DNA from: a virus
Taxonomy: Duplodnaviria; Heunggongvirae; Uroviricota; Caudoviricetes
Length of the DNA stretch: 14,377 bases
Strand: one strand, 5' to 3'
Virus record (IMG/VR): IMGVR_UViG_2675903352_000015
Coordinates: 1-14,377 of that record
In this document: positions 1 through 14,377 of the stretch, one piece after another
How the letters are laid out: each line of letters opens with the position of its first letter
Position numbering within the stretch: the stretch's first letter is position 1
Position numbers and translations under genes: made by a program
Notes under the pieces: generated by a model
What the model was told of the DNA's origin: nothing
Databases searched by the model: none
The model's input: the letters and a program-made list of their open reading frames with translations, nothing else

Positions 1-750
1 AGCCGGTGACTCCGGATCAACGGCAATGCTGACCACCGTCTTTTCCTGTGGCGGGTTTTGCTGGTGGGCGTGAGGCAGCAGCGCAAGATTTTTTGTGCGC
101 TGCTTCAGTATGCTGGTGGCGGTCTGCTCTCCCGGTACGATGTCGCTTTCGCGGTACACCGAGCGGATTTTTTCCGCACGCAATCCCAGAGAACGACGTA
201 ATACTGCCTCCGGCAATACGTCCGCTACCTGATTGCAGACCGCCCACCAGGATAATTCAGCCAGCGATAACTCCCGCTCCTGTGTACCGTTTATTGCGTG
301 GCGGATGACGTCAATCATCCAGGATGTCAGGTTTTGTTGAGCAAGTTGCCCGAGTGATTCTGAAGTCTGGTCGCGTAACTGATTATCACAGTGCCAGCAC
401 AATACCATCGCGCCGGTACCGTAACGATGTATGACGGTTTCACTGTGGTGGTAGTCACCATGAGGCCACTGGCAGGATTTAACATGGCGTAACAGCCAGT
501 CAGACAATGCGCCAGCGCCGCCAGCAGCACGAATCACCCGCTCATCGCTGAAAAATGGCAGTAATGATTTATCTTCCGCGAGCGGCTGGCGCACGGCAGG
601 AACAGCTCCTGACGGCAGACCGCGCATGCTTTTCGGTTCCGGCTCCACCAGCACCCGGGGATTATGAAATACCTGCATGGATTCACGGCCCGGCTTAAGG
701 ACCACCAGCCCGAGTTCCGGTACCAGAACAGGTCGAAGTAATATCCGCAC
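1..750 (-). CDS. hypothetical protein, N-terminal part only (gene continues beyond the left edge)
   Basis: Minus-strand frame aligned to plus triplets 1,4,7... has no stop from position 825 down to position 1 (more than 270 codons). Candidate starts are GTG 750..748 (GGAGG 4 nt upstream, 1 nt after the stop of the upstream gene) or ATG 678..676. Translation contains a His/Cys-rich segment (CQWPHGDYHH...LCWHCD). Absent from the ORF track because it is edge-truncated. No family recognised. Confidence 0.4.
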   Translation of the reverse strand, partial: MRILLRPVLVPELGLVVLKPGRESMQVFHNPRVLVEPEPKSMRGLPSGAVPAVRQPLAEDKSLLPFFSDERVIRAAGGAGALSDWLLRHVKSCQWPHGDYHHSETVIHRYGTGAMVLCWHCDNQLRDQTSESLGQLAQQNLTSWMIDVIRHAINGTQERELSLAELSWWAVCNQVADVLPEAVLRRSLGLRAEKIRSVYRESDIVPGEQTATSILKQRTKNLALLPHAHQQNPPQEKTVVSIAVDPESPA

Positions 751-751
751 G

Positions 752-1030
752 TTACCTCCAGATACGTTGCTGGAATGTGCGGGAAGGACGCGGTGGGCGC
801 TCGGAGTAAGGGAGCCTTACAGAGATTATCCAGTGCAGGCGATCCAGACTGAGATCTTTCTGAACCTCATAGCCACGTCTGCGGTAGCTCTGAATTAGCC
901 ATTCAGCCTGTTCTTCTGTGCATGGAGGGTGCTGATACCAGCGAGTTTTAAATGCGTGCAAACGCCGCCCGTGCCTGCTGGCAAAGACGGCTGAATTATC
1001 AGAATTGTGTAACTTGGTATCGTGCGCCAT
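752..1030 (-). CDS. hypothetical small protein (92 aa from ATG 1030; ORF track extends it to a TTG at 1084)
   Basis: Open frame 752..1084 on minus strand; first ATG at 1030..1028; stop abuts the GGAGG/GTG start of the downstream edge gene, suggesting an operon. No family recognised. Confidence 0.35.
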   Translation of the reverse strand: MAHDTKLHNSDNSAVFASRHGRRLHAFKTRWYQHPPCTEEQAEWLIQSYRRRGYEVQKDLSLDRLHWIISVRLPYSERPPRPSRTFQQRIWR

Positions 1031-1098
1031 CGGTTGTCTCTGCTGGCGCAGCAGGTGCCAGTTGTTCAGGCTGGCGTGCGGCAATATTGTCTCTGATT

Positions 1099-1148
1099 TC
1101 TGTTGTCGTCAACAGACAGCGTGCTATCATCGAATAGTGTTCTATACT
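1099..1148 (+). promoter_or_regulatory. putative parDE promoter with palindromic operator
   Basis: Palindrome CTGTTG-tcgt-CAACAG at 1100..1115; candidate -10 hexamers TATCAT 1125..1130 and TATACT 1143..1148 upstream of the ParD start at 1166. ParD antitoxins typically autoregulate through such palindromes. Confidence 0.4.
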
Positions 1149-1165
1149 ACTCTGTGAGGTTTACC

Positions 1166-1423
1166 ATGCGTACAACCCAACAATTCAGCATTACATTAAC
1201 TAACGAGATGGCTGACATGGTGCGCGCCCGTGTGGCTTCCGGTGCCTATGCTTCAGAAAGTGAGGTCATTCGTGAAGGGCTTCGCGCACTGAATGAGCGC
1301 GATAAAGCAATCGAAGAGTGGTTAACGCATTCAGTCGCCCCCTCTCTTGATTCTATCCGCGAAAATCCAAGCAACGGACGCTCCATTTCACAGGTTCGCG
1401 CCGCGATTCGATCCGGAAAGTAA
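1166..1423 (+). CDS. parD: ParD-family antitoxin (ribbon-helix-helix)
   Basis: 85-aa product from ATG 1166 (GAGG 7 nt upstream); sequence ...MADMVRARVASGAYASESEVIREGLRALNERDKAIEEWL is typical of RHH ParD antitoxins; immediately followed by a ParE-like gene. The ORF-track start at 1103 is an unlikely N-terminal extension. Confidence 0.8.
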   Translation: MRTTQQFSITLTNEMADMVRARVASGAYASESEVIREGLRALNERDKAIEEWLTHSVAPSLDSIRENPSNGRSISQVRAAIRSGK

Positions 1424-1428
1424 TCTGC

Positions 1429-1740
1429 ATGACATATGAAGTCATCATTACTCCTGAGGCCGAACAACAAATAATCAACATGCACAGATATATAACTGAG
1501 AAAGCAGGGAACGTCATTGCTGACAATTATGCCAATGCACTTCTTGATTATCTTGATGGGTTTTCTACATTCCCGCATCGGGGCAATAAACGCGATGATA
1601 TTCGCCAGGGGATGCGGGTAACTCATTTCCGCCACAGAACGATTATTGCTTTTGCCGTTGATGACAATAAAGTTTTTATCGCAGGCGTATACCACGGTGG
1701 GCAAATCTATGAAACCGATTTTTTATCCAGTGCACCGTAA
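1429..1740 (+). CDS. parE: ParE/RelE-family toxin
   Basis: 103 aa; starts 5 nt after the parD stop; C-terminal part (THFRHRTIIAFAVDDNKVFIAGVYHGGQ) matches the ParE/RelE fold pattern; canonical antitoxin-then-toxin order. Confidence 0.8.
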   Translation: MTYEVIITPEAEQQIINMHRYITEKAGNVIADNYANALLDYLDGFSTFPHRGNKRDDIRQGMRVTHFRHRTIIAFAVDDNKVFIAGVYHGGQIYETDFLSSAP

Positions 1741-1780
1741 AACCCCCATCCTTCAGGGCGTGGCGGATATCAAACTTTGT

Positions 1781-2863
1781 TCATTTTCTCTGGCTGATCT
1801 TTACCGGATAACCATCCCGAAGATCAATTAAGTGCTCCGGTTCAGAAGCAAACCATGCATAAGATCCCCACGCCAATTCTGGTATTGCCTTTTTAAAAGG
1901 CAGAGCACTTCTGTCAATAAATGCCGTAAGGAATGCAAGATTTTTCTCGCTGAACCCAGCGTCAATAGCCAAATGAGTGAGAGTAACTTTTCGTTCCCTG
2001 TTTATAGGCCCATCTGTCGCAACTACCTCAGTGAAAACTACAAGCATATCCGAACCCGTTCGGTCCTCTCCCAAATCAATCAAAATAATATCTGGAAGTG
2101 CTTTTGAGGCATCAATATTCAGCCCCAATGCTTTTGCCAATACATCATCCTGAGCAACAACTTTATTCCCAGATTCAGACAACCAGAGCACAGTTGGATT
2201 CTTAAGAAAATTAGGAGCAAAAACTTCGATGACGGCCTTAGCTATTGTACTTGACGGGCCCGGAGCTAAAGTTCTCTTCTCTCCATTTGGGAAAGTGACG
2301 ACTACGGCATCAGCAGCAATCACTGCCCCTGATTTCAATAAACGCAATCTAGCAAGAGCGGCTTTGTTCAAATGATTTTCCTGCCAGGAACTTATTGCAC
2401 TCAGCAGCGAATCTCCTTCAAGCCCAGCATCAAAGAGTGCTGCAAAAGAGCGATTCAAACTGTAACGAGGATGAGAGGATGTGGTGGGTATACCTTTACG
2501 CTCAACAATTGCATTGCAAGGTATTAGGCCATTTTTTATAGTTTCATCACGTATTGGCTCACGCGTATTTTCCGCATACCATGCATCAGCAGGCCTTATC
2601 TTTTGTTTAGAGAAAGTCATCTTTACCCAACTTTCTCTGGACGCATCATCAGTAAGAGCAGCCTGTGAATCTCCCATACTTACAACCTGGCTGGGCCTTA
2701 TCCATCGCCCCAGCCCCTCAACCGCACCAGCATAAAACATGACAAAAATTGTTTTTGCAGCTATTTCCCGAATTAAATATCCACGATTCTCAGTCCCTTC
2801 AGGGAAAATTAATGGTAATCTTTCCCGGATAACATTCAATGGGGGAACAACAGGCAGATTCAT
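1781..2863 (-). CDS. putative type II restriction endonuclease (resembles BsuBI/PstI family, from memory)
   Basis: 360-aa ORF directly downstream of the methyltransferase on the same strand, with ATGA start/stop overlap at 2860..2863; AT-rich composition; size and context match REases paired with Eco57I/PstI-type methyltransferases. Family assignment is from recollection only. Confidence 0.6.
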   Translation of the reverse strand: MNLPVVPPLNVIRERLPLIFPEGTENRGYLIREIAAKTIFVMFYAGAVEGLGRWIRPSQVVSMGDSQAALTDDASRESWVKMTFSKQKIRPADAWYAENTREPIRDETIKNGLIPCNAIVERKGIPTTSSHPRYSLNRSFAALFDAGLEGDSLLSAISSWQENHLNKAALARLRLLKSGAVIAADAVVVTFPNGEKRTLAPGPSSTIAKAVIEVFAPNFLKNPTVLWLSESGNKVVAQDDVLAKALGLNIDASKALPDIILIDLGEDRTGSDMLVVFTEVVATDGPINRERKVTLTHLAIDAGFSEKNLAFLTAFIDRSALPFKKAIPELAWGSYAWFASEPEHLIDLRDGYPVKISQRK

Positions 2864-4692
2864 GCAATCATCACTCCATAGAAACCAGCGATAGTTCTCT
2901 CAATAATCCGTCTGTGGACGCCGGCATCAATTAACGATTGAATCTCCATCACCTGCTCCAGAGAAGGCAACGGGATTGAATTCAATTCATAGGCCGAAAC
3001 AGCAACACTTCCGCTTATACACCTGAACGCCCGATCGACAACATGCGAATTAAGTAGCATATCAATAACATCAGGGCGAACCGCAGAGAACAATCCGTTT
3101 GAATACACAATATTAATATGGTTTTCAACTACTACGCCACCAGTTTCATCTATAAATCCCTGAGGTAAAATCGCAGCTAAAATCCTTCTGTCCTGCTCCT
3201 TCGATGTTGTCCGCTGAACAAGCACACATTCAGATTTTGTCACAAGGAAACCCTGTTGTGGGGTTATATCGATATAGGGAACATGATTTTTTCTGTCTGC
3301 GCTAAAACGGAAACCAGCTGAAGTTATTGATTCCGCCCAGACTAATGGATAGCTATTTTTTCCTTTCGTCGTACGCAACTGCGACTTAAATCGATTCCAG
3401 ACTAACTGACCTGTAGAGACTGAGTATCCCAGATCAGCTAAACGCGTAGACATCTGTTTTAATACATTAAGAAAACAAGCATCATCTTTAACTCGTGGCA
3501 AAAGCCACGTTGCTCCACCTTTTTCTATATCAACATTACCTATTTTCTCAATTTTTGCTTTGTTCAACCCCTTAGGGACAAGTGAGGATACCTGGGCCCG
3601 AACTTTATGTTCTCCCGCCTTGAATGCTGTCAACATTGTTTCCTGGAGAACATCGTCAAAGACCCCATCCCTGTCAGCGACGAAATCAAGGGCATACGGA
3701 GTAGTTTTTTCGGTCAAAAGGGTTCGCAGCGCGGTGAAATACTGCCCACCAAGAAAAGAAGTTGGCGTAAGAAATGCAATAACTCCTGTTTTCTCTTTAA
3801 CCATGCGAACAGCTAAGTCGGTGAACAATCCATATAGATTTGCATGACCAAATAACGAACGAGAATATTTTTCTCTCGTTTTAATATCGAGAGTGACACG
3901 TCCGTAAGGCGGATTCCCTACCACAAGATCATAACCAGAAATTTTATCTTGCTGAAGCGCATCAGCAACAATAATTGTATCTTCAGGCAATCTACGTTTT
4001 ACCTTTACACATAGTGGCATTAGTACAGATTCGAGCAATACCAAACTCATCCAAGCCGCAAATGGATCGATTTCTATCCCCTTTAAACGACGACTGATTC
4101 TCCTCAACATCCATTCAGGGGAAGACCCCTTGTCTTTTTTTAACATTCGAATGGCTACTGGTGCCAAAAATGCACCGCCACCACACGCAGGATCAATAAC
4201 CGATGCATGAGAAAAATCAACACCAGACTTTTCAGCCAGGTCCAAGAGACGCGCTACCAAAGGTGGGGGGGTATAGTAAGCCCCCAATTCCGAACGGTAA
4301 GCGGATGGCAGCATTACCGTATAAATTGACCCAATCAGATATCCAGCGTCCTCCGCCGGAAATTGAGCAATAAGCTCACCTGTTCGTTCAGCGAGCTCGC
4401 GTGCATCACATGGAATGTCTTCTATGTAAACAGTGTGCGGTACTGCCCTCATTTTAATGCTGCTTTTTTGCTTTTTTGCAAGGGTATCCCAATATGCAGC
4501 TACGATGCTGAAGCAGTATGAGCGGGCATGCATCAACCTTGACTGCCCGGTTTTGTAATTGCCCGCATAACCTTTGGCCATGGCTTTACAAGTTTGATAT
4601 CTTTCCAGATTAGAAAACTCATTATCTGTAAAAAAATCAAAATGTTGCACATTCATAATGTAAAATCCTAATGTATCAAACATGCGGGCCAT
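2860..4692 (-). CDS. gamma-class N6-adenine DNA methyltransferase (Eco57I/PstI-like modification subunit)
   Basis: 610 aa; motif X GAYYTPP, motif I DPACGGGAFL (SAM binding), motif IV NPPYGRV in gamma-class order. Start choice is uncertain (ATG 4692 with weak SD; internal ATG at MNVQHF has an AGGA upstream). Confidence 0.85.
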   Translation of the reverse strand: MARMFDTLGFYIMNVQHFDFFTDNEFSNLERYQTCKAMAKGYAGNYKTGQSRLMHARSYCFSIVAAYWDTLAKKQKSSIKMRAVPHTVYIEDIPCDARELAERTGELIAQFPAEDAGYLIGSIYTVMLPSAYRSELGAYYTPPPLVARLLDLAEKSGVDFSHASVIDPACGGGAFLAPVAIRMLKKDKGSSPEWMLRRISRRLKGIEIDPFAAWMSLVLLESVLMPLCVKVKRRLPEDTIIVADALQQDKISGYDLVVGNPPYGRVTLDIKTREKYSRSLFGHANLYGLFTDLAVRMVKEKTGVIAFLTPTSFLGGQYFTALRTLLTEKTTPYALDFVADRDGVFDDVLQETMLTAFKAGEHKVRAQVSSLVPKGLNKAKIEKIGNVDIEKGGATWLLPRVKDDACFLNVLKQMSTRLADLGYSVSTGQLVWNRFKSQLRTTKGKNSYPLVWAESITSAGFRFSADRKNHVPYIDITPQQGFLVTKSECVLVQRTTSKEQDRRILAAILPQGFIDETGGVVVENHINIVYSNGLFSAVRPDVIDMLLNSHVVDRAFRCISGSVAVSAYELNSIPLPSLEQVMEIQSLIDAGVHRRIIERTIAGFYGVMIA

Positions 4693-4751
4693 AACATCTC
4701 ATGGTGGCGCATAGCAAACTGGCCCGAAGAATATCACGCACCAAGTCGATC

Positions 4752-4767
4752 TCATAACCCGTTATGA
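4752..4767. promoter_or_regulatory. 16-bp palindrome TCATAACCCGTTATGA upstream of the restriction-modification operon
   Basis: Perfect inverted repeat CATAAC-cc-GTTATG (4753..4766, extendable by one base each side), about 60-75 bp upstream of the methyltransferase start in a 214-bp AT-rich intergenic region; position fits an operator. Confidence 0.3.
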
Positions 4768-4906
4768 CAATAAATCTTTGTAGCTGAACTCACTTGGTGA
4801 TTTGTCAATCATTCCTGGCCTCCAGTTCGTCCTGAATCTCTTTATCGAGTTCACCGTATTTGTTAGTCCTCATCACTCACGACTTGACTTCCAGAAATAA
4901 CCTTGA

Positions 4907-5263
4907 TTATTCGGGGCTATATTTTGTCACCCTGCGTATCCGCGCTTTCGCATTACGCTCAATCTGGATTAGCTTTTCTATATTTTTTCGCCTTTCCCGC
5001 TCCTCCTGGCGCAAGAGCCTTACATCATCTGCCAGTCTGGTTTCTCTTTTCGCCACAGAGAGCATCCAGTCAAATGGCTCCACAACTGCACCGCAGATTT
5101 TACAGCGGACCTGACGCTCTTTTTCGTCAACCCGGACAGAAGCGTGATGGCAATATGGTCTTTCCGATGGCTCATAAAGAAAATTAACCTGATTACGAGG
5201 GTTATCCTCTTTTACCGGAAATAAAACAATATTGCTTAACTCATCTTCTGGTTTTATTTCCAT
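4907..5263 (-). CDS. hypothetical protein with putative zinc ribbon (C-H-H ... C-x2-C) and basic C-terminus
   Basis: 118 aa from ATG 5263..5261, preceded by AAGGAGAGGAGC on the minus strand. The ORF-track start (GTG 5320) directly abuts the upstream stop and lacks an SD. Motif YCHHASVRVDEKERQVRCKICG. No family recognised. Confidence 0.5.
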   Translation of the reverse strand: MEIKPEDELSNIVLFPVKEDNPRNQVNFLYEPSERPYCHHASVRVDEKERQVRCKICGAVVEPFDWMLSVAKRETRLADDVRLLRQEERERRKNIEKLIQIERNAKARIRRVTKYSPE

Positions 5264-5320
5264 GCTCCTCTCCTTTGATGCGAATGCCAGCGGTAATTGA
5301 AGCCTGATAGCTAATTTCAC

Positions 5321-5743
5321 TCACAGTACCGCCTCCTGAAAATCACCCTGATAGAAAGCCAGTACACGCTGCATAACTTCACTCTTCCGGCACTCGCGAC
5401 AGATTATGTTCTGATGTCTGTCGTAGCGGCGTATTTCTCCGTCTGGTAATGACCAGATAAGGTCCGGATCAACCGCAGATGGTTTCTTCAGCTTTGCCCT
5501 TGAGAGCTTTTTACGGGCATTTTGCCAGTCCTTACGCGCCTGTTCAGACGGGAATAACCCGTAACCAGAGTTGCATACATCGCCACTGGCAACCAGCTCT
5601 CTGGCCAGAACGCTCATCAGATATCTTGTTGCCCCAGTTTTAGCTTCCAGTTGTCGTAACGTCTCGCGCCCACTCTGGCGTACGAGTTCAACAACCTGCC
5701 CTTTAATTTTTTCCCGCTCTTCTTGTGTAAAAACTTTTGCCAC
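5321..5743 (-). CDS. hypothetical protein (possible winged-helix/HTH) in the position where a helicase loader would be expected
   Basis: 140 aa; GTG start 5743..5741 with AGGAGGG upstream; lies 40 bp downstream of the O-like gene; no Walker A motif, so not DnaC-like. Confidence 0.5.
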   Translation of the reverse strand: MAKVFTQEEREKIKGQVVELVRQSGRETLRQLEAKTGATRYLMSVLARELVASGDVCNSGYGLFPSEQARKDWQNARKKLSRAKLKKPSAVDPDLIWSLPDGEIRRYDRHQNIICRECRKSEVMQRVLAFYQGDFQEAVL

Positions 5744-5783
5744 AAGCCCTCCTGAAAATTACCTCATGACCAGAAATTAACAC

Positions 5784-6749
5784 TTACCCCCTGAAGCCCG
5801 GCGGAATTTCGTTATCCGGTTCAGAAATGTGATTCACGCAACGCTGTACAGGCGAACGCCCCAGACGAATAACCAGCTCATCCCATTTTTCGCGAAGCTT
5901 TGACGGGCTCATGACGTTTTTTACCCAGAATGGATCCCGCTGTACCCGACCAAACATTTCGCAAATTTGTCTGTGAGTTCTGCCATCCAGCATCCGCATT
6001 GTGCGCACATCATTGGCCCATGCAGTCCAGTTTGGTTCTTTCGGTCGCATGATTTCGCCATCATCGCTGGCAGCCTGCTCGTAAAGACTCACGATTCGCC
6101 CCCAGATCCACTGCGCACACGCCAAATCTTCCTGGCTGCCCCACTGGCGTTTTTTCGCACTGAACACAACAGCGTCAGGGTGTCGGGTTAAAAAATCCTG
6201 TTCAGCCGTCTGCCTGTCCGGTTGCGAAGATTCCGGACGAGAAGTGTTTTTATTCTCTGTAGTAATCTCTGTTGTATTCTCTGTAAGATCATCGGGCCAT
6301 TTTGACCCGATGACATTGGGTCGTTTTGAACCAATGGAGCGTGTCATTTTGGCTCCTTCCATCGTGTCATTTTGACCTGATGGAGCGGCGCATTTTGACA
6401 TGATGGATTCGCTCACTTTGCCACCATCTAAAAGCTCGCTCTCGTAATTAATCGTGTAAAAATTAGTCATATCACGCTTTGATTTGTTGAGCTTTTCACA
6501 ACGCAAAAGCCCCAGCGTTTTCAGACTTGCAAATGCGCGTTTTAACGTTGACTCTGACCAGAAAGGGAACTGTTCCAGCCATTGTTCTGTTGTGTTATAA
6601 ATCCAGCGAACACCATCACATTCCATGCCGGAACCGGTATCTCTCAACCAGTAATGCAGCTGCTGCAACACGATGGCTTCGTTCAGACCAATTTTCATCG
6701 CCAGCTGCGTGTTTATAACCAGCGGGCGTTCAGCAAAAAGGAGCTTCAT
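5784..6749 (-). CDS. phage replication initiation protein (lambda O / Rac YdaU-like replisome organiser)
   Basis: 321 aa; strong SD (GGGGGAGGGG) before ATG 6749; follows the Cro-like and YdaT-like genes in the rightward-operon position; an iteron array and AT-rich repeats lie inside the central linker of the gene, as in lambda O/ori. Confidence 0.65.
   Translation of the reverse strand: MKLLFAERPLVINTQLAMKIGLNEAIVLQQLHYWLRDTGSGMECDGVRWIYNTTEQWLEQFPFWSESTLKRAFASLKTLGLLRCEKLNKSKRDMTNFYTINYESELLDGGKVSESIMSKCAAPSGQNDTMEGAKMTRSIGSKRPNVIGSKWPDDLTENTTEITTENKNTSRPESSQPDRQTAEQDFLTRHPDAVVFSAKKRQWGSQEDLACAQWIWGRIVSLYEQAASDDGEIMRPKEPNWTAWANDVRTMRMLDGRTHRQICEMFGRVQRDPFWVKNVMSPSKLREKWDELVIRLGRSPVQRCVNHISEPDNEIPPGFRG
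6250..6430. repeat. putative replication origin: six 23-bp-spaced iterons plus three tandem 12-bp AT-rich repeats
   Basis: TTTTG cores at 6300, 6324, 6347, 6370, 6393 and (CTTTG) 6416, unit consensus about GTCATTTTGACCnGATGGAG; adjacent TATTCTCTGTAG-like 12-mers with TCTCTGT at 6254, 6266, 6278. Confidence 0.6.
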
Positions 6750-6770
6750 CCCCTCCCCCAGAACACGTTA

Positions 6771-7196
6771 TCAATGCGCCACCACGGCATTTCCCGCCGG
6801 ACCACCACGATTCATCTGATTGAAACCAGCAATTACCACCGCGACAAGTTCATCAGCGTCTCTCACCAGTCGTTCATGCGTATCCACCAGTTCCCGAAAA
6901 TAATCGGAACTGTGGCTGCGCATCCAGGCCACCAGCGGAGGTGGCATTGCCTTTTCGATCGCTGGTAACAAAGCCTGAATTTTTTTAACCGCATCAGGGG
7001 TGTCTTTCTCCACCCAGCGGAAAATTTTCTGAGTATTGCGAGCCAGGGCTTCCGGATGGCTGTCGTCATACAGTTCCGGGAATGTCATACCCAGCTCAAA
7101 ATAAGCCCGGGTTATTTCAGCTGCCGGAACTTTTTCACCGTCCGGACGCGCCCAGGCATTCATCGCCATGCGGATGTGTTCATGCTTGATTTTCAT
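6771..7196 (-). CDS. YdaT-like protein (Rac prophage family; role assignment from context)
   Basis: 141 aa; overlaps the end of the upstream Cro-like gene by 17 bp; SD GGGGA upstream; position and size match Rac ydaT. Confidence 0.5.
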   Translation of the reverse strand: MKIKHEHIRMAMNAWARPDGEKVPAAEITRAYFELGMTFPELYDDSHPEALARNTQKIFRWVEKDTPDAVKKIQALLPAIEKAMPPPLVAWMRSHSSDYFRELVDTHERLVRDADELVAVVIAGFNQMNRGGPAGNAVVAH

Positions 7197-7452
7197 GAAT
7201 CATCCCCGGTGTATTTGGTGTGTTAACTTTACATCCAACAGGTAAACCGTCGGTTGGGTTAGGATAAATATCAGGGCGAATTTCATGCGGGGTAACTTCC
7301 CACTTCATTAGCTGGCATAACGGAATTACCTGCTTTGGGGGAACACCAAAGCTAAACCATTGCCAAACAGTCTGTTGAGCAACTCCCATATAACGACCTA
7401 TTTCAGCTTGAGTGTGTTTCTGCCTAATTTTTTCGCGAGTGCTATCTAGCAT
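7180..7452 (-). CDS. Cro/YdaS-like HTH transcriptional regulator
   Basis: 90 aa; strong SD (GAGGAGGG) before ATG 7452; HTH segment TQAEIGRYMGVAQQTVWQW; divergent from the repressor gene across an operator-bearing intergenic region. Confidence 0.65.
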   Translation of the reverse strand: MLDSTREKIRQKHTQAEIGRYMGVAQQTVWQWFSFGVPPKQVIPLCQLMKWEVTPHEIRPDIYPNPTDGLPVGCKVNTPNTPGMIHENQA

Positions 7453-7481
7453 TTTGCCCTCCTCTAAAAAACTATAAGCAA

Positions 7482-7523
7482 ATCCTACAATAAAAAACTG
7501 TATGCGATCAACAGTTTTTTATT
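7482..7523 (-). promoter_or_regulatory. pR-like promoter with operator palindrome O1 (AAAAACTGT-N9-ACAGTTTTT)
   Basis: Perfect 13-bp inverted repeat AATAAAAAACTGT (7489..7501) / ACAGTTTTTTATT (7511..7523); on the minus strand TTGATC (-35, 7511..7506), 18-bp spacer, TAGGAT (-10, 7487..7482) upstream of the Cro-like gene. Confidence 0.5.
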
Positions 7524-7561
7524 GTGATGCTTTTAACAGTATTTGCCTGTAAAATTGGAAA

Positions 7562-7963
7562 ATGATGAACGCCCTAGAAGTATCTATGTACAGAATCAGC
7601 AAGCTTCTTCAGGAAACTGGATGGAGCCAGGCTGAGCTTGCCCGTAGAATTGGTGTGACACAGCAAACTGTTCAACAATGGGTCAGCGGTAAGGCAACAC
7701 CTAAAGCCTCAAGTTTGGATAAACTGGTTGAGGTTACAGGGCATCCATTGCATTGGTTTTTATTGCCTCCTGAAGAGAGGGAGCAAATTTTCACCCCTGA
7801 TACGATGAAAATTGGTCCTCGCCAACGCGAACTGCTCCAAGCTTTTAGTGCGTTTCCTGAGGAAGACCAGGAAAAAATGCTTCAAGAAATCAAAGACAAG
7901 AAAAAATCAATGGAAGAAACCATTGCCCGATGGTTAGCGGCACAAAAAAGCCGCCTGGCGTGA
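7562..7963 (+). CDS. CI/RacR-like prophage repressor (XRE-family HTH, no S24 peptidase domain)
   Basis: 133 aa; HTH SQAELARRIGVTQQTVQQWVSGKATP; sits between the two operator-bearing divergent promoters in the same arrangement as lambda cI; no C-terminal Ser/Lys autocleavage motif recognised. Confidence 0.7.
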   Translation: MMNALEVSMYRISKLLQETGWSQAELARRIGVTQQTVQQWVSGKATPKASSLDKLVEVTGHPLHWFLLPPEEREQIFTPDTMKIGPRQRELLQAFSAFPEEDQEKMLQEIKDKKKSMEETIARWLAAQKSRLA

Positions 7964-7990
7964 CCACTGAACAAGAAGAGGAGTTATGCC

Positions 7991-8068
7991 ATGAGTACAG
8001 CCCTTTCTCCGATAGTTTCAGAATTCGAAACAACCGAACAAGAAGACAGTTATAACTTCAAGCATTGA
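7991..8068 (+). CDS. possible small ORF (25 aa, acidic) downstream of the repressor
   Basis: ATG 7991 preceded by GAGGAG with a 7-nt spacer; MSTALSPIVSEFETTEQEDSYNFKH; lies between the repressor stop and the terminator. Could be non-coding. Confidence 0.25.
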   Translation: MSTALSPIVSEFETTEQEDSYNFKH

Positions 8069-8133
8069 AATTGCAAATATTGTGCATGCCCGACGACAAT
8101 TTACCTTCTCTATCTAAGCAGAACAATTTTCAT

Positions 8134-8159
8134 ACTCCCTCATTCGAGGGAGTTTTTTT
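8134..8159 (+). terminator. rho-independent terminator ending the repressor transcript
   Basis: 8-bp stem ACTCCCTC / GAGGGAGT with ATTC loop followed by TTTTTT (8154..8159); U-run present only for the plus-strand transcript. Confidence 0.65.
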
Positions 8160-8173
8160 GCCTAAACCAACAA

Positions 8174-8213
8174 TTAAAAACTGTTGACACAAAACAGTTT
8201 TTAATTGTAGATT
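8174..8213 (+). promoter_or_regulatory. pL-like promoter with operator palindrome O2
   Basis: TTGACA (8184..8189), 18-bp spacer, TAGATT (8208..8213); perfect 12-bp inverted repeat TTAAAAACTGTT (8174..8185) / AACAGTTTTTAA (8193..8204) overlapping the -35; same CTGT-N9-ACAG core as O1. Confidence 0.55.
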
Positions 8214-8224
8214 ATTTTCACCAA

Positions 8225-8237
8225 CCCCCCCCCCCCC
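8225..8237. repeat. homopolymeric C13 tract
   Basis: Thirteen consecutive C at 8225..8237, starting about 12 bp downstream of the pL-like -10 hexamer, in the transcript start/5' leader region. Confidence 0.9.
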
Positions 8238-8389
8238 ACAGAACGCCGGGCAATACTTCGAGTTACCCGGCAGTGGTCAGGGGTTAAGTAGCCAGCCCGA
8301 GGCGTAAGAACATGACGGCAGGGTTCAACTTTAACTATGCAGCAGGTTTTTGTTCCGCTACCCCGGCGTTAAGGGGAAATGAGGTCAAC

Positions 8390-8545
8390 ATGGATACTAT
8401 CGATCTTGGCAACAACGAATCTCTGGTGTGCGGCGTGTTCCCAAACCAGGACGGCACATTCACCGCGATGACGTATACCAAAAGCAAAATGTTTAAAACC
8501 GAAAATGGTGCCCGTCGCTGGCTGGAAAGAAACTCAGGTGAGTGA
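8390..8545 (+). CDS. small prophage protein (51 aa; resembles Rac/Qin YdaF/YdfA-type proteins from memory)
   Basis: ATG 8390 with GAGG 5 nt upstream; an in-frame upstream ATG at 8312 (GAGG 9 nt upstream) would give 77 aa, so the start is ambiguous. Confidence 0.5.
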   Translation: MDTIDLGNNESLVCGVFPNQDGTFTAMTYTKSKMFKTENGARRWLERNSGE

Positions 8546-8546
8546 T

Positions 8547-8675
8547 ATGGATTTCGACACAATCATGGAAAAGGCTTACGAAGAATACTTCGAAGGCCTT
8601 GCCGAAGGCGAAGAGGCTCTCAGCTTCAGTGAGTTTAAACAGGCGCTTTCCAGCCCGGCAAAATCTAACGGCTGA
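8547..8675 (+). CDS. small acidic protein (42 aa)
   Basis: ATG 8547 one nt after the preceding stop (coupled); MDFDTIMEKAYEEYFEGLAEGEEALSFSEFKQALSSPAKSNG. The ORF-track alternative (GTG 8542, other frame, Arg-rich low complexity) looks less protein-like. Confidence 0.4.
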   Translation: MDFDTIMEKAYEEYFEGLAEGEEALSFSEFKQALSSPAKSNG

Positions 8676-8704
8676 TAAGCGAAGCAGCACCGCGAGGAAT
8701 CAGT

Positions 8705-8923
8705 ATGCAGAAACGAGAACCCGTCATCATCGCGCCAGACTATACCGATGATGAACTTTATGAGTGGATGCACCAGAAAATTAAGGCAGCGCAGGACCTG
8801 AAATGGGCCAATGAAGCCATGGCTAAGCAGGCCGAAAATCTGTCTGCTCTGGAAAAAGATATTACCAATCTGGAAAAAGCAGCGGCATTAAGCATTGCCA
8901 GAATGATTACATACCCACGTTAA
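8705..8923 (+). CDS. hypothetical helical protein (72 aa)
   Basis: ATG 8705 with GAGGA 6 nt upstream; heptad-like, probably coiled-coil sequence; no family recognised. Confidence 0.5.
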   Translation: MQKREPVIIAPDYTDDELYEWMHQKIKAAQDLKWANEAMAKQAENLSALEKDITNLEKAAALSIARMITYPR

Positions 8924-8945
8924 TAGCTAACCAACGAGGCTAATA

Positions 8946-9353
8946 ATGGAATTTAAAGATTTACCAAAAGAAATCCAGACAATTGCTGCAACGACTCTCG
9001 GTGATAGTCTGGTGAAAATTGACCCGGCATACACCAAAAAAGAAACCATCGATAATATGGTTCGTAATGTGCGCAATGCTTTTTCTGGGCTATATGGTTC
9101 TGATAATCAAAAGCAGGAAAGCGATGTTAATAAACGGGTAATTTCTGTTTGCGTGAATGGCCATGTTCTTTCATCAATCAAAACAGAAACGGCGACAGTC
9201 TTCGATTGCCTTTGCATTGTACAGAGCCTTGTTGATGCCCTGTTTCGTTCAGTGAATTTAGAAAATGATGCAAATCTGCGAGGGCGCACAATAGCACATC
9301 CATATGCACATACTTTAGGCTCTGTGGATATCAAAGATCCCACAAATCTTTAA
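8946..9353 (+). CDS. hypothetical protein (135 aa) in an AT-rich accessory insert
   Basis: ATG 8946 with GAGG 8 nt upstream; visibly AT-richer than flanking prophage genes; no transmembrane segment or known motif recognised. Confidence 0.55.
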   Translation: MEFKDLPKEIQTIAATTLGDSLVKIDPAYTKKETIDNMVRNVRNAFSGLYGSDNQKQESDVNKRVISVCVNGHVLSSIKTETATVFDCLCIVQSLVDALFRSVNLENDANLRGRTIAHPYAHTLGSVDIKDPTNL

Positions 9354-9564
9354 TGAAATAGTTAACGCGAATTGTACTTGCTCTTTCAGTTGCTTTCAGA
9401 ATACGCGTTGAAACTGCTGGCGGTAATTTGGTATTCCATTTATTAAAATCATGCCCGGGAAAGTACTCTTCGAAAATACTTTTAACTGCAGACTCGCCTA
9501 TTGAAATGCTGCTTACCATGCGATTTTGATAAAGGCATTTAGCAATAAGAGTTGATTTTAACAT
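9331..9564 (-). CDS. hypothetical protein (77 aa), convergent with and overlapping the 3' end of the 135-aa gene
   Basis: ATG 9564..9562 preceded by AGGAGG (spacer GTGA) on the minus strand; AT-rich; 3' end overlaps the convergent gene by 23 bp. Confidence 0.45.
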   Translation of the reverse strand: MLKSTLIAKCLYQNRMVSSISIGESAVKSIFEEYFPGHDFNKWNTKLPPAVSTRILKATERASTIRVNYFIKDLWDL

Positions 9565-9957
9565 TCACCCTCCTGAGGGTTGGTAATTAAGGAGTTCTCC
9601 ACGGGTGAAATGGAGTGCGTGCGCCGGACACGGGTGAACATCCGGCACTGACAGTTTACTGAAAGGATATTTCTCTGAAAAGTCAGAGCATAACGCGAAA
9701 GCGCACGGCGAGGTTGCTGGTTCATAGATAGCCTGTCGTTAAATTTTCGTCGACCGTGCGCTTCCGGTTGTGGCACTCCGCGAAATGGCGCGGCGGTAAG
9801 TATGGCGGGGTTATTCCTTCCCCCGTTGAGGACACCGGGTTGTCAGGTTGACCATACGCTTAAGTGACAACCCCGCTGCAACGCCCTCTGTTATCAATTT
9901 TCTGTGACGTTTGGCGGCATCTGTTTGCCCATGAACTGATGTCCGCCCTTTTTAAAG

Positions 9958-10105
9958 TGAATTTTGTGATGCGGTGAATGCGGCTAAGCGCACGCGGAAC
10001 AGTTAAAGCTAAAAACAGTGTTATGGGTGGATTCTCTGTATCCGGCGTTAATTGTTAACTGGTTAACGTCACCTGGAGGCACCAGGCACCGCATCACAAA
10101 ATTCA
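9958..10105. repeat. 19-bp perfect inverted repeat pair flanking a 110-bp segment
   Basis: TGAATTTTGTGATGCGGTG at 9958..9976 and its exact reverse complement at 10087..10105; right arm ends 4 nt before the GAGGA SD of the ORF starting at 10123; internal segment contains GTTAAC-tg-GTTAAC. Confidence 0.85.
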
Positions 10106-10122
10106 TTGTTGAGGACGCGATA

Positions 10123-10311
10123 ATGGAAACGTTATTACCAAACGTTAATACGTCTGAAGGTTGTTTTGAAATTGGTGTCACTATCAGCAATCAGATATTT
10201 ACTGAAGATGCCATTAATAAAAGAAAACACGAACAGGAACTGCTAAATAAAATATGCATTGTTTCGATGCTGGCCCGTTTACGTCTGATGCAAACAGGAT
10301 GCAGGCAATGA
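10123..10311 (+). CDS. hypothetical small protein (62 aa) in the kil-region position
   Basis: ATG 10123 with GAGGA 7 nt upstream; the ORF-track GTG 10018 start would read through the inverted-repeat arm and is less likely. Confidence 0.4.
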   Translation: METLLPNVNTSEGCFEIGVTISNQIFTEDAINKRKHEQELLNKICIVSMLARLRLMQTGCRQ

Positions 10312-10406
10312 ATACGGCATTTGTACTCGTTCTGACTGTTTTTTTGTTTCTGGTGAACCGATTGATCTTGTTATTGACATACATGACTCAATGGAAGAAT
10401 GCATGA
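10308..10406 (+). CDS. possible hydrophobic micro-protein (32 aa, single predicted TM helix)
   Basis: ATG 10308 overlaps the upstream TGA (ATGA coupling); MNTAFVLVLTVFLFLVNRLILLLTYMTQWKNA. Below the length cut-off of the ORF track. Confidence 0.3.
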   Translation: MNTAFVLVLTVFLFLVNRLILLLTYMTQWKNA

Positions 10407-10498
10407 CTGCCGCGGCAGAGCAAAAAATTCCCGGGAACTGTTATCCTGTCGACAAAATTATTCGCATGAACAATAACGAAATCCCGGCAGGCCTTTAA
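10403..10498 (+). CDS. possible micro-ORF (31 aa; 35 aa if started at ATG 10391)
   Basis: ATG 10403 overlaps the preceding TGA (second consecutive ATGA coupling); MTAAAEQKIPGNCYPVDKIIRMNNNEIPAGL. Confidence 0.25.
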   Translation: MTAAAEQKIPGNCYPVDKIIRMNNNEIPAGL

Positions 10499-10590
10499 AA
10501 CAGCCCCATAATAAATATCCGGTTTTATTTTTATATGTCAGCAATGGCAGGGATTTGTCCACCCTTAAATCTGTAATGAGGTAAAACAAA

Positions 10591-13071
10591 ATGAGTAAAG
10601 TCTTTATTTGCGCCGCCATTCCGGACGAACAGGCAACAGCAGAAGGCGCCAAACCTGTGGCCACTGCCATTGAAGCAGGCGACGAACGCCGGGCAAGAGC
10701 CAAATTTAGCTGGTTATTTCTGGAACAATACCCGGAAGCTCAGGACTGTGCTTATAAATTTCTTGTCTGCGAGGATAAACCCGGCATGGCCCGCCCTGCT
10801 CTCGATTCCTGGGATTCCGAATATATGCAGGAAAACCGCTGGAATGAGGAGTCGGCTTCCTTTGTTCCGGTCGACCCTGAACCGGACGCAGAAATTGTTA
10901 ACTTTAATCAGTTATCTGACGACAAGCGGGCTGCTGTCCTTGTCAGGTTCGGTACACATGAAAACATCACCGTGGATATGGTCATCAATGCAAGCGGGCT
11001 TCTCGGCGATGACGAGATGACGACTTTTGATGGACACCTCGCTGAAGCAATTATCCGGACCAGAGAAATTAACGCCATGTATCCAGAGCGTCAGATTGAG
11101 TACATCAACGATGCCAGACGTGATTTAAAACCAACAGCCAAATGGCCCGACGTTCAGGCGTATTTTCTCGAACGTAAAAAACGCATGGAAAAGGAGCGCA
11201 AAGAAGGTGGCGCATATAATTCCGTCGTCGATCTTGCCCGCGCCAGAGTCAACCGGCAAGGCACTGAAAACTCTGCAGGAAAAACTGACTCCGTAACTGC
11301 TGTCATTCGTCGCGAATACAGGCAGACATGGAAAACACTGGATGAAGAACTGGCCTACGCTTTCTGGCCTGGTGATATTGATGCCGGAAACATTGACGGC
11401 AGCATCCATCGCTGGGCAAAAAATGAAGTTATCGACAAAGATCGCGAAGACTGGAAGCGTATTTCCGCATCAATGCGCAAACAACCTGATGCCGTTCGCT
11501 ACGACCGTCAGACTATTTTTGGCCTTGTCCGTGAGCGTCCGATCGACATTCACAAAGATCCCGTGGCGCTGAACAAATACATCACTGAATACCTGGCGAC
11601 AAAGGGCGTGTTTGAGGATGAAGAAACAGACCAGAGCACTGCTGATATTCTCCAGCCGTCAGCAGCACAAACTGATGCAGTGGAAACTGAAGTATCTGAT
11701 ACCCAAAAAAATGAAAGCGCGCTGGAAACTGAACCATCTGTAGAGCGTGAGGGGCCGTTCTACTTCCTCTTCACCGATAAGGATGGCGAAAAATATGGTC
11801 GTGCAAACAAACTTTCTGGTCTGAATAAGGCGCTGGCTGCAGGGGCTACTGAAATCACGAAAGAAGAATATTTTGCCCGTAAAAACGGCACGTACTCAGG
11901 TTCACAACAAAATACTGGTGCATCTGACACGACCGCACAACCAGAGCCGGTAAAAGTTACCGCTGACGAAGTAAACAAAATTATGCAGGCAGCCAATATC
12001 AGCCAGCCTGACGCCGATAAGTTGCTTGCTGCCTCTCGCGGAGAATTTGTTGCAGGGATTAGCGACCCGAATGATCCGAAATGGGTGAAGGGGATTGAAA
12101 CCCGCGATTCTGTAAACCAGAACCAGCAAGAATCGGAACAGAACGACCAGAAAGCGGAACAAAACAGTCAAAATGCGTTACAAAACGAGCCAGAAACGAA
12201 ACAACCTGAGGCAGTAGCGCAACAGGAACCGGAAAAAGTCTGCACCGCCTGCGGTCAGAGCGGTGGCGGCAACTGCCCTGATTGTGGCGCGGTGATGGGC
12301 GACGCAACATACCAGGAAACATTCGATGAAGAGAATCAGGTTGAAGTTCAGGAAAATGATCCGGAGGAAATGGAAGGCGCTGAACATCCACACAAGGAGA
12401 ATGCTGGCAGCGCTCAGGACCACGCCAGCGATAATGAAACTGGTGAGACGGCAGATCCCTTAATTGTGGTGAACGGTCATCACGTTATCACATCCACCAG
12501 CAGAGTGTGGTACCACCTGATGATCGACCTTGAAACAATGGGAACCAACACCAATGCGCCCATCGTGGTTATTGGTGCGGTTTTCTTCGACCCACAAACA
12601 GGGGAAATCGGGCCAGTATTTTATATCGTTATCAGTCTGACTGACGCAATGAATACAGGGGCTGCTCCTGACGGTGGAACCATCAAATGGTGGCTGAAGC
12701 AGTCCAGTGAAGCCAGAGCTGCCATTTTAACAGACCAGGTAAAACTGAAGGATGCCCTTTCGCGGTTTCGGGAGTTCATCAACGAATACTCAGATGAAAA
12801 ATTCGTTCAGGTATGGGGTAATGGTGCAACTTTCGATAACGCAATTTTGCGCACCTCATACGAACGTCTGGACATCCCCTGCCCGTGGCGCTACCACAAC
12901 GATCGCGATGTACGCACAATCGTTGAGCTGGGAAAAACAATCGACTTTGATGCTAGAACCGTTATTCCATTCGAAGGCGTTCGCCACAATGCACTGGATG
13001 ACGCCCGTCACCAGGCAAAATACGTTTCAGCAATCTGGCAAAAACTGATCCCGAATCCGGTTGATTTTTAA
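10591..13071 (+). CDS. RecE-like prophage exonuclease: RecE-type N-terminal/central region and Cys4 zinc ribbon fused to a DnaQ-like DEDDh 3'-5' exonuclease domain
   Basis: 826 aa; GAGGT 8 nt upstream. Segment DKLLAASRGEFVAGISDPNDPKWVKGI...CTACGQSGGGNCPDCGAVMGDATYQETFDEE closely matches Rac RecE as I recall it. C-terminus has DEDDh motifs: MIDLETMG (D646, E648), WGNGATFDNAIL (D749), HNALDDARH (H799, D803/D804). Confidence 0.8.
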   Translation: MSKVFICAAIPDEQATAEGAKPVATAIEAGDERRARAKFSWLFLEQYPEAQDCAYKFLVCEDKPGMARPALDSWDSEYMQENRWNEESASFVPVDPEPDAEIVNFNQLSDDKRAAVLVRFGTHENITVDMVINASGLLGDDEMTTFDGHLAEAIIRTREINAMYPERQIEYINDARRDLKPTAKWPDVQAYFLERKKRMEKERKEGGAYNSVVDLARARVNRQGTENSAGKTDSVTAVIRREYRQTWKTLDEELAYAFWPGDIDAGNIDGSIHRWAKNEVIDKDREDWKRISASMRKQPDAVRYDRQTIFGLVRERPIDIHKDPVALNKYITEYLATKGVFEDEETDQSTADILQPSAAQTDAVETEVSDTQKNESALETEPSVEREGPFYFLFTDKDGEKYGRANKLSGLNKALAAGATEITKEEYFARKNGTYSGSQQNTGASDTTAQPEPVKVTADEVNKIMQAANISQPDADKLLAASRGEFVAGISDPNDPKWVKGIETRDSVNQNQQESEQNDQKAEQNSQNALQNEPETKQPEAVAQQEPEKVCTACGQSGGGNCPDCGAVMGDATYQETFDEENQVEVQENDPEEMEGAEHPHKENAGSAQDHASDNETGETADPLIVVNGHHVITSTSRVWYHLMIDLETMGTNTNAPIVVIGAVFFDPQTGEIGPVFYIVISLTDAMNTGAAPDGGTIKWWLKQSSEARAAILTDQVKLKDALSRFREFINEYSDEKFVQVWGNGATFDNAILRTSYERLDIPCPWRYHNDRDVRTIVELGKTIDFDARTVIPFEGVRHNALDDARHQAKYVSAIWQKLIPNPVDF

Positions 13072-13137
13072 TGTTCAACCCTGATCGCCGTCTCCGAATT
13101 ATATTGGCGGCGGTCATGCTGTAAGGCACGTGACCAC

Positions 13138-13389
13138 ATGTACGAATTAACTCTATCGCCAGCAGAGATTCAAGAGATCACGAAATACGAGCGATACACA
13201 AAACAGCAACACCAGTTAAGGCTGCACGGTATCCCATTTGTAATCGGTCCTAAAAACGAACCAATAGTTCTTCGCAGGGATATTCCACACGGACTGACTA
13301 CGATGCCAAAAGCACCTGAACTAGTTTCCGCTGAACCCGATTTTGAGGCGCTGAACAATGGGAAGACCAAGAAAAAACAAAAAAGATAA
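13138..13389 (+). CDS. xis: excisionase (lambda Xis-like)
   Basis: 83 aa; N-terminus MYELTL and lysine-rich C-terminus NNGKTKKKQKR resemble lambda Xis (MYLTL...NGKKAKS) from memory; overlaps the integrase start by 32 bp as in lambda. Confidence 0.55.
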   Translation: MYELTLSPAEIQEITKYERYTKQQHQLRLHGIPFVIGPKNEPIVLRRDIPHGLTTMPKAPELVSAEPDFEALNNGKTKKKQKR

Positions 13390-14377
13390 TGCACTACCAC
13401 CGCGTGTTAGATCGAATGGTTACAGTTACGTGTGGAAACCCGAAGGAAGCACAAGAACTATAGGGCTCGGAAGAGTACGGGAAACCAGCGTAGCTAAAGT
13501 CTGGCAAAATTATGAACTGGAAAAAGCAAAACTCCACAACATAATGACCGTCGCTAAATTATGGCACATGTTTATGGACTCCCCTGCATTTACAGAACTG
13601 GCACCCCGAACCCAAAAAGATTATCGACAACATCAGAGGGCGTTGCTGGCGGTATTCGGTAAAGTGCTTGCTGATAATGTAAAAATTGAGCAAGTAAGAA
13701 TTTTCATGGATAAGCGGGGACTTGAGAGCAAGACCCAGGCAAACCATGAGCTGGCAAGCCTGAGTCGCGTATACGGATGGGGATATGAGCGTGGGTATGT
13801 GAAAAATAATCCATGCAAAGGCGTCAGAAAATTCACGCTTAAAGCCCGCACTGTTTACATAACCGATGAACAGTATGCGGCGATATACGCGGAAGCAATT
13901 CCACAGTTACGCATTGCAATGGAGATTTCCTATCTTTGTGCGGCAAGGCTCGGTGATGTTCTCGAGCTGAAATGGCAGGATATTATGGATAAAGGGATCT
14001 ACATTGAGCAAAACAAAACAGGCACCAAACAAATCAAGGAATGGTCTCCGCGATTACGTACGGCGATCCAGTTAGCCCGAAATGTATCTTCCGGCATATG
14101 CGGGTATGTGATCAGCACAACCAAAGGCGGGAAAGTCATCGCTAAAACGCTGAACAACTGGTGGAATCAGGCTAAACGCGCAGCCGAGCAAAAAGCAGGC
14201 GTTCCGTTCGGATGTAATTTTCATGACATAAAAGCCAAAGGGATTTCAGATTATGAAGGCAGCAGCCGCGACAAACAAATTTTCAGTGGGCATAAAACAG
14301 AAAACCAGGTGTTGATTTATGATCGCAAAACAAAAATCACCCCAACACTGGATTTGCCGCTTGTGGTCAGTAAGTAG
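13358..14377 (+). CDS. int: tyrosine integrase, lambda Int family
   Basis: 339 aa; N-terminal MGRPRK...LPP...NGY like lambda Int; box I Arg (AARLGDVLELKW); box II FHDIK...SGHK...LIYDRK with candidate catalytic Tyr; stop codon TAG is the last three bases of the window. Confidence 0.9.
   Translation: MGRPRKNKKDNALPPRVRSNGYSYVWKPEGSTRTIGLGRVRETSVAKVWQNYELEKAKLHNIMTVAKLWHMFMDSPAFTELAPRTQKDYRQHQRALLAVFGKVLADNVKIEQVRIFMDKRGLESKTQANHELASLSRVYGWGYERGYVKNNPCKGVRKFTLKARTVYITDEQYAAIYAEAIPQLRIAMEISYLCAARLGDVLELKWQDIMDKGIYIEQNKTGTKQIKEWSPRLRTAIQLARNVSSGICGYVISTTKGGKVIAKTLNNWWNQAKRAAEQKAGVPFGCNFHDIKAKGISDYEGSSRDKQIFSGHKTENQVLIYDRKTKITPTLDLPLVVSK

Follow-up and report, generated by a model that had tools for sequence, protein, structure and literature searches.

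The DUF968 and DUF1364 families make up group 7 of the His-Me finger (HNH) proteins, with YdfU and YbcO as members and RusA and Q genes as neighbours, and a role in recombination or repair has been proposed for them (Jablonska et al. 2017, PMC5714182). In phage lambda, a nin-region gene just upstream of Q encodes Rap/NinG (PF05766), an HNH-type endonuclease that is structure-specific (PMC4118853, PMC5714182). We examined a pair of genes at one end of a 14,377-nt viral DNA (IMG/VR record IMGVR_UViG_2675903352_000015, positions 1 to 14,377; this whole stretch is called the window below), namely a 92-aa open reading frame (ORF) and a long frame that follows it and is cut by the window edge. The long frame is almost certainly a ydfU-type prophage nin-region HNH gene. 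Our explanation of the locus, to which we assign a probability of about 0.7, is that it encodes a ydfU-type nin-region HNH nuclease which would take part in DNA processing during the lytic cycle.

The part of the long frame within the window matched Pfam PF06147 (DUF968) with E=7.9e-17 and 62.3 bits (gathering threshold 27.8) over residues 160-250, corresponding to profile positions 1-76 of 171; P0003, a full-length protein 96% identical to it, matched the same model with 213.6 bits (E=2.6e-63) over residues 160-343. The long frame also matched PHROG 96, “HNH endonuclease”, with E=1.1e-107. It aligned closely with YdfU (b1560) of E. coli K-12 throughout, with a ratio of nonsynonymous to synonymous substitution rates (dN/dS) of 0.09; on this whole-length alignment and the same prophage position we identify it as the ortholog of ydfU of the Qin prophage. 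The two share a length of 349-351 aa, the GTG start context, a three-part layout and an intact HNH motif, and in K-12 as well the gene lies in a lambdoid prophage upstream of a Q-like gene (ydfT), with hokD and the relBE toxin-antitoxin genes as cargo just upstream. They differ in being distinct alleles, in that the K-12 Q gene follows directly without RusA, and in the second zinc knuckle (CRKHH in K-12, CRKCH here); the window copy, moreover, ends at codon 250.

Both genes are on the minus strand. The small ORF occupies 752..1030 (stop codon included), from an ATG at 1030 to a TAA at 754-752. A Shine-Dalgarno GGAGG (755..759, minus) for the long gene is placed within the final codons of the small ORF (...TGGAGGTAAcGTG), and a single base (751) separates the small-ORF stop from the GTG start of the long gene at 750-748. 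The long frame is open from 750 to position 1 (1..750, minus), which accounts for the first 250 codons of a 351-aa YdfU ortholog; it was absent from the ORF list because it runs off the window edge. The TGGAGGTAAnGTG junction was kept in 7 of 7 intact related loci (L003-L009), and from this arrangement we infer that the long gene is translationally coupled to the small ORF. The 92-aa ORF, the 1-nt gap, the GGAGG-GTG start and the long open frame had all been reported in a preliminary description of this DNA, and each was confirmed. The edge truncation proposed there was likewise borne out: a complete 351-codon gene was obtained from the near-identical genome CP043262 (L025 5281-6336), which differed by 16 mismatches over the shared 1030 bases and by 4 over 5 kb upstream. 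The 101 codons outside the window include the canonical HNH motif. The CP043262 prophage carries the same restriction-modification and ParDE cargo as the window, and its gene order past ydfU is RusA, Q antiterminator, holin, lysozyme, Rz, a small HNH gene and terminase.

The small ORF had a median dN/dS of 0.19 across Escherichia homologs and the long gene one of 0.10, values which mark both frames as genuine genes under purifying selection, not chance ORFs. With the family matches and the conserved junction, this upholds the earlier view of the pair as real, tightly coupled genes. The description of the pair as unannotated held for the ORF track from which it was made; in RefSeq, both genes are annotated in thousands of genomes. 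A megablast search with window positions 1-1100 gave a match in 4548 of 5426 complete E. coli genomes (coverage of at least 80% in 4368), and annotation in matching E. coli genomes reads “DUF968 domain-containing protein | hypothetical protein”. By tblastn the family was found in 175 phage records, which include Stx2 phages, SfII/SfIV, ST64B, mEp390, phages of Klebsiella, Pantoea, Serratia and Vibrio, and P1 with PdcB. Its range is the Gammaproteobacteria (Escherichia, Klebsiella/Raoultella, Hafnia, Xenorhabdus, Pantoea, Cronobacter, Plesiomonas, Vibrio and Gilliamella). The family is already known and catalogued (ydfU/DUF968). The locus has little discovery value as a very common, catalogued prophage backbone gene next to a lineage-specific hypothetical gene; YdfU is, at the same time, among the most widespread uncharacterised proteins of E. 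coli, and its biochemistry would fill a gap among the “y” genes.

The position of ydfU is fixed. The gene lies directly before RusA and Q, or before Q alone, in L001, K-12 Qin, L016, L020 (phage vB_EcoS-689R5), L021-L026, SfIV, mEp390, Hafnia and a Klebsiella-type phage, and in P1 the late activator gene lpa comes next after the homolog pdcB. The features of a lambdoid nin region were all found: a location between the replication genes and Q, the early-right orientation, and a prophage with int, repressor and cro-like genes. Leftward of ydfU, L016 as well as CP043262 has RusA, Q, lysis genes and terminase. Many siphophages have HNH proteins that assist their terminases, and YdfU might, like HK97 gp74-type HNH proteins, be an accessory of terminase DNA packaging; in P1, pdcB is two genes upstream of pacA/pacB, as would suit such a role. 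In the lambdoid phages, however, Q and the lysis cassette separate ydfU from the terminase genes, in the CP043262 prophage another HNH gene, of 116 aa, directly precedes that for the terminase small subunit, and YdfU is much larger with an HNH domain of a different group, and we consider a packaging role very improbable.

The genes on the other side of the pair are not fixed. At about 1051-1080, just upstream of the small ORF, the window loses its homology to other E. coli prophages, and what is found beyond this break varies: L001 has hokD and paa, K-12 has rem, hokD and relBE, L021 has hokD with an isochorismatase gene, and the window has ParDE with restriction-modification genes. Because homology stops here, ParDE and the restriction-modification genes are regarded as interchangeable cargo, and the comparison places the pair in the conserved phage backbone and the defence and addiction genes at a cargo site of changing content, immediately upstream of the small ORF. 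The full ParDE plus PstI/BsuBI-type restriction-modification cargo (window 1081-4900) was found with at least 80% coverage in only 2 of the 5426 complete E. coli genomes; CP043262, from another collection, adds one further carrier. At least a partial cargo match was present in 365 complete E. coli genomes, and the partial matches listed covered the ParDE segment only. In one of the two cargo-sharing complete genomes, E. coli VL7S7 (L016, 4227-4605), the annotation gives a frameshift in rusA, which lies downstream of ydfU, and an IS911 element adjoins the holin gene; this prophage copy is probably decaying.

The preliminary description had noted that the position of the pair suits a defence-island setting and had left its family unassigned. 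In its strongest form this would make the two genes a prophage anti-phage defence or toxin-antitoxin-like module, with an HNH effector and a small inhibitor or sensor, in one island with ParDE and the restriction-modification genes. PADLOC-DB 2.0 gave zero matches for the window fragment of the long gene, for full-length P0003 or for the 92-aa ORF, while the neighbouring genes, which served as positive control, matched type II restriction-modification models (restriction endonuclease, E=2.4e-129; methyltransferase, E=6.6e-300). The long gene can be assigned, as the ydfU ortholog, and it occupies a fixed backbone slot before RusA/Q in inducible, lytic-capable temperate phages, while the adjoining cargo varies. 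The close packing of the two genes is usual in phage operons; the pair lies downstream of a repressed early-right operon, and the promoter scan gave no credible candidate for it; and the small ORF is absent upstream of the YdfU homologs in Hafnia, Vibrio, SfIV, mEp390 and P1, so that the nuclease needs no cognate inhibitor. A defence function for the pair is therefore unsupported, the pair being conserved phage backbone and the neighbouring cargo interchangeable, and we judge it highly unlikely. The defence content of the locus is, in the corrected reading, the ParDE and PstI-type restriction-modification cargo, not the pair.

The protein was modelled with AlphaFold2 (AF2) from a 40-sequence alignment with P0003 as target. 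The mean predicted local distance difference test score (pLDDT) was 86, and residues 226-242 were below 50. YdfU consists of an N-terminal domain of about 155 aa with a putative zinc site, a partly disordered linker and, at the C terminus, a His-Me finger (HNH) domain that belongs to the DUF968/DUF1364 group. In the window, the family-specific N-terminal domain (residues 1-158) corresponds to 277..750 (minus), the predicted zinc site (C93, H101, C118 and C121) to 388..474 (minus), and the beginning of the Pfam DUF968 region, from residue 160 onward, to 1..273 (minus); this last part contains a conserved W169, a RESDI motif and the low-confidence linker, and runs past the window into the HNH core.

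In the complete protein from CP043262 the C-terminal motifs are C275xxC278, H286-H287 and C309xxC312-H313-N314...H317; C275/C278 and C309/C312 make up the two CxxC zinc knuckles, and H286/H287, N314 and H317 the predicted catalytic HH...N...H set. The HNH catalytic residues and CxxC knuckles are conserved in most family members. The modelled domain has the beta-beta-alpha-metal fold and is a canonical His-Me finger, with nuclease activity predicted by analogy. A BLASTP match to P1 Ref was on residues 286-327, and phmmer and hmmsearch placed YbcO and McrA on the same HNH core, all such matches being within residues 262-327. In structure, the HNH domain is closest to P1 Ref and YbcO. YbcO (DLP12/phage 82; DUF1364; PDB 3g27) shares the His-Me group, the nin position by rusA and the core motif H..G.GTK..D...C..CH, whereas it is a 96-aa single domain without N-terminal zinc domain or linker, and its similarity to YdfU is marginal (E ~0.3-0.4). 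Ref, a RecA-dependent HNH nuclease (PDB 3plw; PF16786), differs in that its N terminus is disordered and basic, and YdfU has no match to the Pfam RecA_dep_nuc model. Rap/NinG of lambda is a positional, and probably a functional, analogue of YdfU; it belongs, however, to His-Me group 24 and not 7, gives no detectable sequence match, and has another size and domain layout. A few proteins of Vibrio and related origin (P0332, P0351 and P0308) retain the HH pair but have H..EH.K or similar in place of the second zinc knuckle (CRKCHN), which suggests an HNH variant subfamily without the second zinc site.

From these comparisons we propose the following sequence of events. The region is the end of the early-right (nin) operon that lies farthest from its promoter, in a Rac/Qin-type lambdoid prophage; as orientation and position suggest, the pair would stay off in the lysogen and be transcribed along with the delayed-early genes upon induction. 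YdfU, as a metal-dependent HNH enzyme, would then cleave or nick branched DNA or recombination intermediates, beside the neighbouring RusA resolvase, much as Rap/NinG does in lambda and Ref in P1; in other lineages the nuclease does without the 92-aa gene. The general part of this proposal, an HNH nuclease of lytic-cycle DNA processing, is the one that we favour; the specific role as a recombination or branched-DNA nuclease, drawn by analogy, is put forward tentatively, at slightly less than even odds.

Several observations weigh against a nuclease of this kind. The sequence similarity to Ref and YbcO is marginal (E ~0.02-0.4). Literature searches returned zero experimental or biochemical reports on YdfU or close homologs, and activity and substrate are assigned by analogy. 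As to a promoter or terminator of the pair's own, there is a weak sigma-70-like site upstream of the small ORF, and the consensus scan did no better there than on shuffled sequence. In the P1 PdcB subfamily (L017 2405-3448; P0348) and in Pantoea P0312, also a full-length homolog, the catalytic HH, N and H are lost and the CxxC knuckles and the N-terminal domain are kept. PdcB and the Pantoea homolog are probably nuclease-dead, and it follows that nuclease activity may not be the conserved core function of the family. PdcB (“post-doc” gene B) is a full-length homolog of YdfU, with 27% identity over 90% of the length and the N-terminal zinc domain conserved; its gene lies between the toxin-antitoxin module phd-doc and lpa, so that the order phd-doc-pdcA-pdcB-lpa mirrors the lambdoid order of toxin-antitoxin cargo, small ORF, ydfU and Q. 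It differs in the missing HNH catalytic residues and in the upstream pdcA, which belongs to PHROG 3345 and not to PHROG 1212, the family of the small ORF.

The N-terminal domain is covered by no Pfam model, and with the cutoff relaxed to E<=10 residues 1-158 still had no significant match. PDB sequences, searched by profile, gave matches confined to the C-terminal HNH core, none being in the N-terminal domain, and the BFVD viral structure library gave short DUF968/HNH-like proteins only. Among 1.84 billion proteins the domain was found in 172 representative clusters; it stands at the N terminus of the full-length members, which are DUF968 proteins. AF2 modelled it with pLDDT mostly at 80-97.

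The preliminary description had pointed to a segment rich in His and Cys, CQWPHGDYHH...LCWHCD, as a possible metal-binding site. This segment, which is distinct from the HNH motif, comprises residues 93-122 of the long frame (nt 474-385), and column counts over 67 representatives revealed the conservation pattern of a metal site at positions 93, 101, 118 and 121: Cys occurs in 65 of 67 at position 93 and in 61 at position 118, while position 101 has His in 54 and Cys in 10, and position 121 has Cys in 44 and His in 21. The remaining histidines of the segment are poorly conserved. In the AF2 secondary structure, the putative ligands flank a beta-hairpin and helix (residues 105-125). The suggestion made from the single sequence was thus a good one, and the segment is read as a conserved four-ligand metal site with predicted binding of zinc.

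The N-terminal hairpin-helix topology parallels the C-terminal finger, as that of a degenerate second His-Me finger or a treble-clef zinc module would, yet hhalign of the two profiles was not significant (E=0.24), and position 108, where the catalytic His of a second His-Me finger would be placed, is His in only 9 of the 67 representatives. A lambda Orf (NinB)-like domain has been claimed for the N-terminal part of Gram-positive DUF968 proteins (PMC4118853); an Orf-like (RAGNYA) fold or sequence match was not borne out for the present YdfU protein. Six database proteins of 400-807 aa (P0263, P0264, P0266, P0254, P0260 and P0282) carry the YdfU N-terminal domain fused to a tail-fibre, tail-tip J, portal or glycine-rich domain. 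These fusions (e.g. those of 582-807 aa) were rejected as true architectures, being likely chimeric assemblies or frameshift artefacts from prophage-rich contigs.

The invariant residues of the N-terminal domain (C93, Q94, C118, W119, D122/N123 and N140) are retained in the P1 PdcB, Cronobacter and Pantoea homologs, whose HNH catalytic residues are lost. This would be expected if the zinc domain carried the conserved function, with YdfU and PdcB binding DNA or protein for an early-to-late switch or for DNA maturation and the HNH domain being an optional or degenerate accessory; such a role would also fit a domain without known relatives, in a gene directly upstream of the late activator in two unrelated phage types (Q in the lambdoids and Lpa in P1). 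Most members, that of the window included, nevertheless have an intact HNH domain under purifying selection, the adjacency to Q may mirror the usual nin layout, where the recombination genes rap and rusA are also found, and no link of the domain to transcription was found. On balance we regard this alternative as unlikely. We would give a slim chance to the broader proposal that the N-terminal domain of about 155 aa in YdfU and PdcB, which is undescribed, is the functional core of the family, in an early-to-late switch or in specific recognition of DNA structure instead of generic recombination, with the PHROG 1212 protein as a possible lineage-specific modulator. A nuclease encoded by the nin-region ydfU gene is still the preferred explanation for the protein of this locus.

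The small ORF matched PHROG 1212 (function unknown) with E=9.1e-35 over residues 27-92. This conserved core also had the lower ratio of nonsynonymous to synonymous polymorphism (pN/pS), 0.15 for codons 27-92 compared with 0.64 for codons 1-26, and residues 1-26 are weakly constrained and predicted to be disordered. Homologs numbered 154 in 5.8 billion proteins, and all 120 among the matches listed were from Escherichia or Shigella. A one-genome-per-species scan found the small ORF in 9 loci, all of Escherichia/Shigella but one. That one is a contig of 22.9 kb (L007, JAGZPX010000007.1) from a metagenome-assembled genome labelled Veillonella parvula, which carries the small ORF and ydfU as a pair; its placement there is probably a binning error.

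Beyond Escherichia, a 67-aa homolog (PHROG 1212, E=1e-25), detected only via the context of a distant YdfU homolog, immediately precedes a ydfU gene of Klebsiella/Raoultella type, whose start it overlaps by 1 base. Other genes upstream of YdfU homologs are an MT-A70 gene in Hafnia, a DUF4406 gene in Vibrio, a KilA-N gene in SfIV, RusA in mEp390 and pdcA in P1. The pair is conserved, then, in Escherichia and in Klebsiella/Raoultella-type phage, and the constant co-occurrence of a toxin-antitoxin or inhibitor pair was not seen. The small ORF is not an obligate partner, since other YdfU lineages have unrelated upstream genes, and the earlier treatment of the two genes as one unit did not survive the comparison, five lineages having an unrelated gene in that place. 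We take the small ORF to be a nin-region gene that is confined to particular lineages and coupled in translation to ydfU; its product has a small alpha/beta fold. P1 PdcA was considered as a homolog of the small ORF and rejected, since it belongs to a different PHROG (3345 vs 1212) and has no similarity to it.

In K-12 MG1655, an intact 92-codon homolog of the small ORF is located between rem and ydfU (NC_000913.3 1644306-1644584, complement; L002 4307..4585, minus), with the same GGAGGTAAcGTG junction, and it has no feature in the retrieved RefSeq annotation table of MG1655. Rem, which is annotated beside ydfU in K-12, was rejected as a homolog of the small ORF: the sequences are unrelated, and the true K-12 counterpart is the unannotated ORF. 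In phage vB_EcoS-689R5 (L020 2658-2936), GenBank labels the small ORF “toxin to Rem”; this label found no support, as the ORF is unrelated to Rem and has no match to a toxin family. The points that the locus offers to curation are the unmodelled, predicted zinc domain at the N terminus of YdfU, the apparently nuclease-dead PdcB subfamily, and the unannotated, conserved 92-codon ORF of MG1655.

At gathering thresholds, Rfam gave zero RNA family matches in the whole window. DicF, which in K-12 Qin is upstream of dicB, was also without an Rfam match, the stretch 9353-10311 included, despite a DicB homolog at 10018-10311 (plus). The larger window ORFs were assigned by Pfam scans, and their gene content shows that the window is the early part of an E. 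coli lambdoid prophage of Rac/Qin type. On the plus strand are an integrase (13358-14377), a DUF4224, excisionase-like gene (13138-13389), an 826-aa exonuclease (10591-13071), the DicB homolog already given, a DUF1391 gene (8312-8545) and a cI-like helix-turn-helix repressor (7562-7963). The early-right side, on the minus strand, has a cro-like YdaS gene (7180-7452), YdaT (6771-7196), an O-like replication initiator (5784-6749), a DUF977 gene (5321-5743) and a zinc-ribbon protein (4907-5320). Between these and the small ORF are the methyltransferase (2860-4692, minus) and the restriction endonuclease (1781-2863, minus) of the PstI/BsuBI-type type II pair, followed by ParD and ParE (1166-1740), which are encoded on the plus strand.

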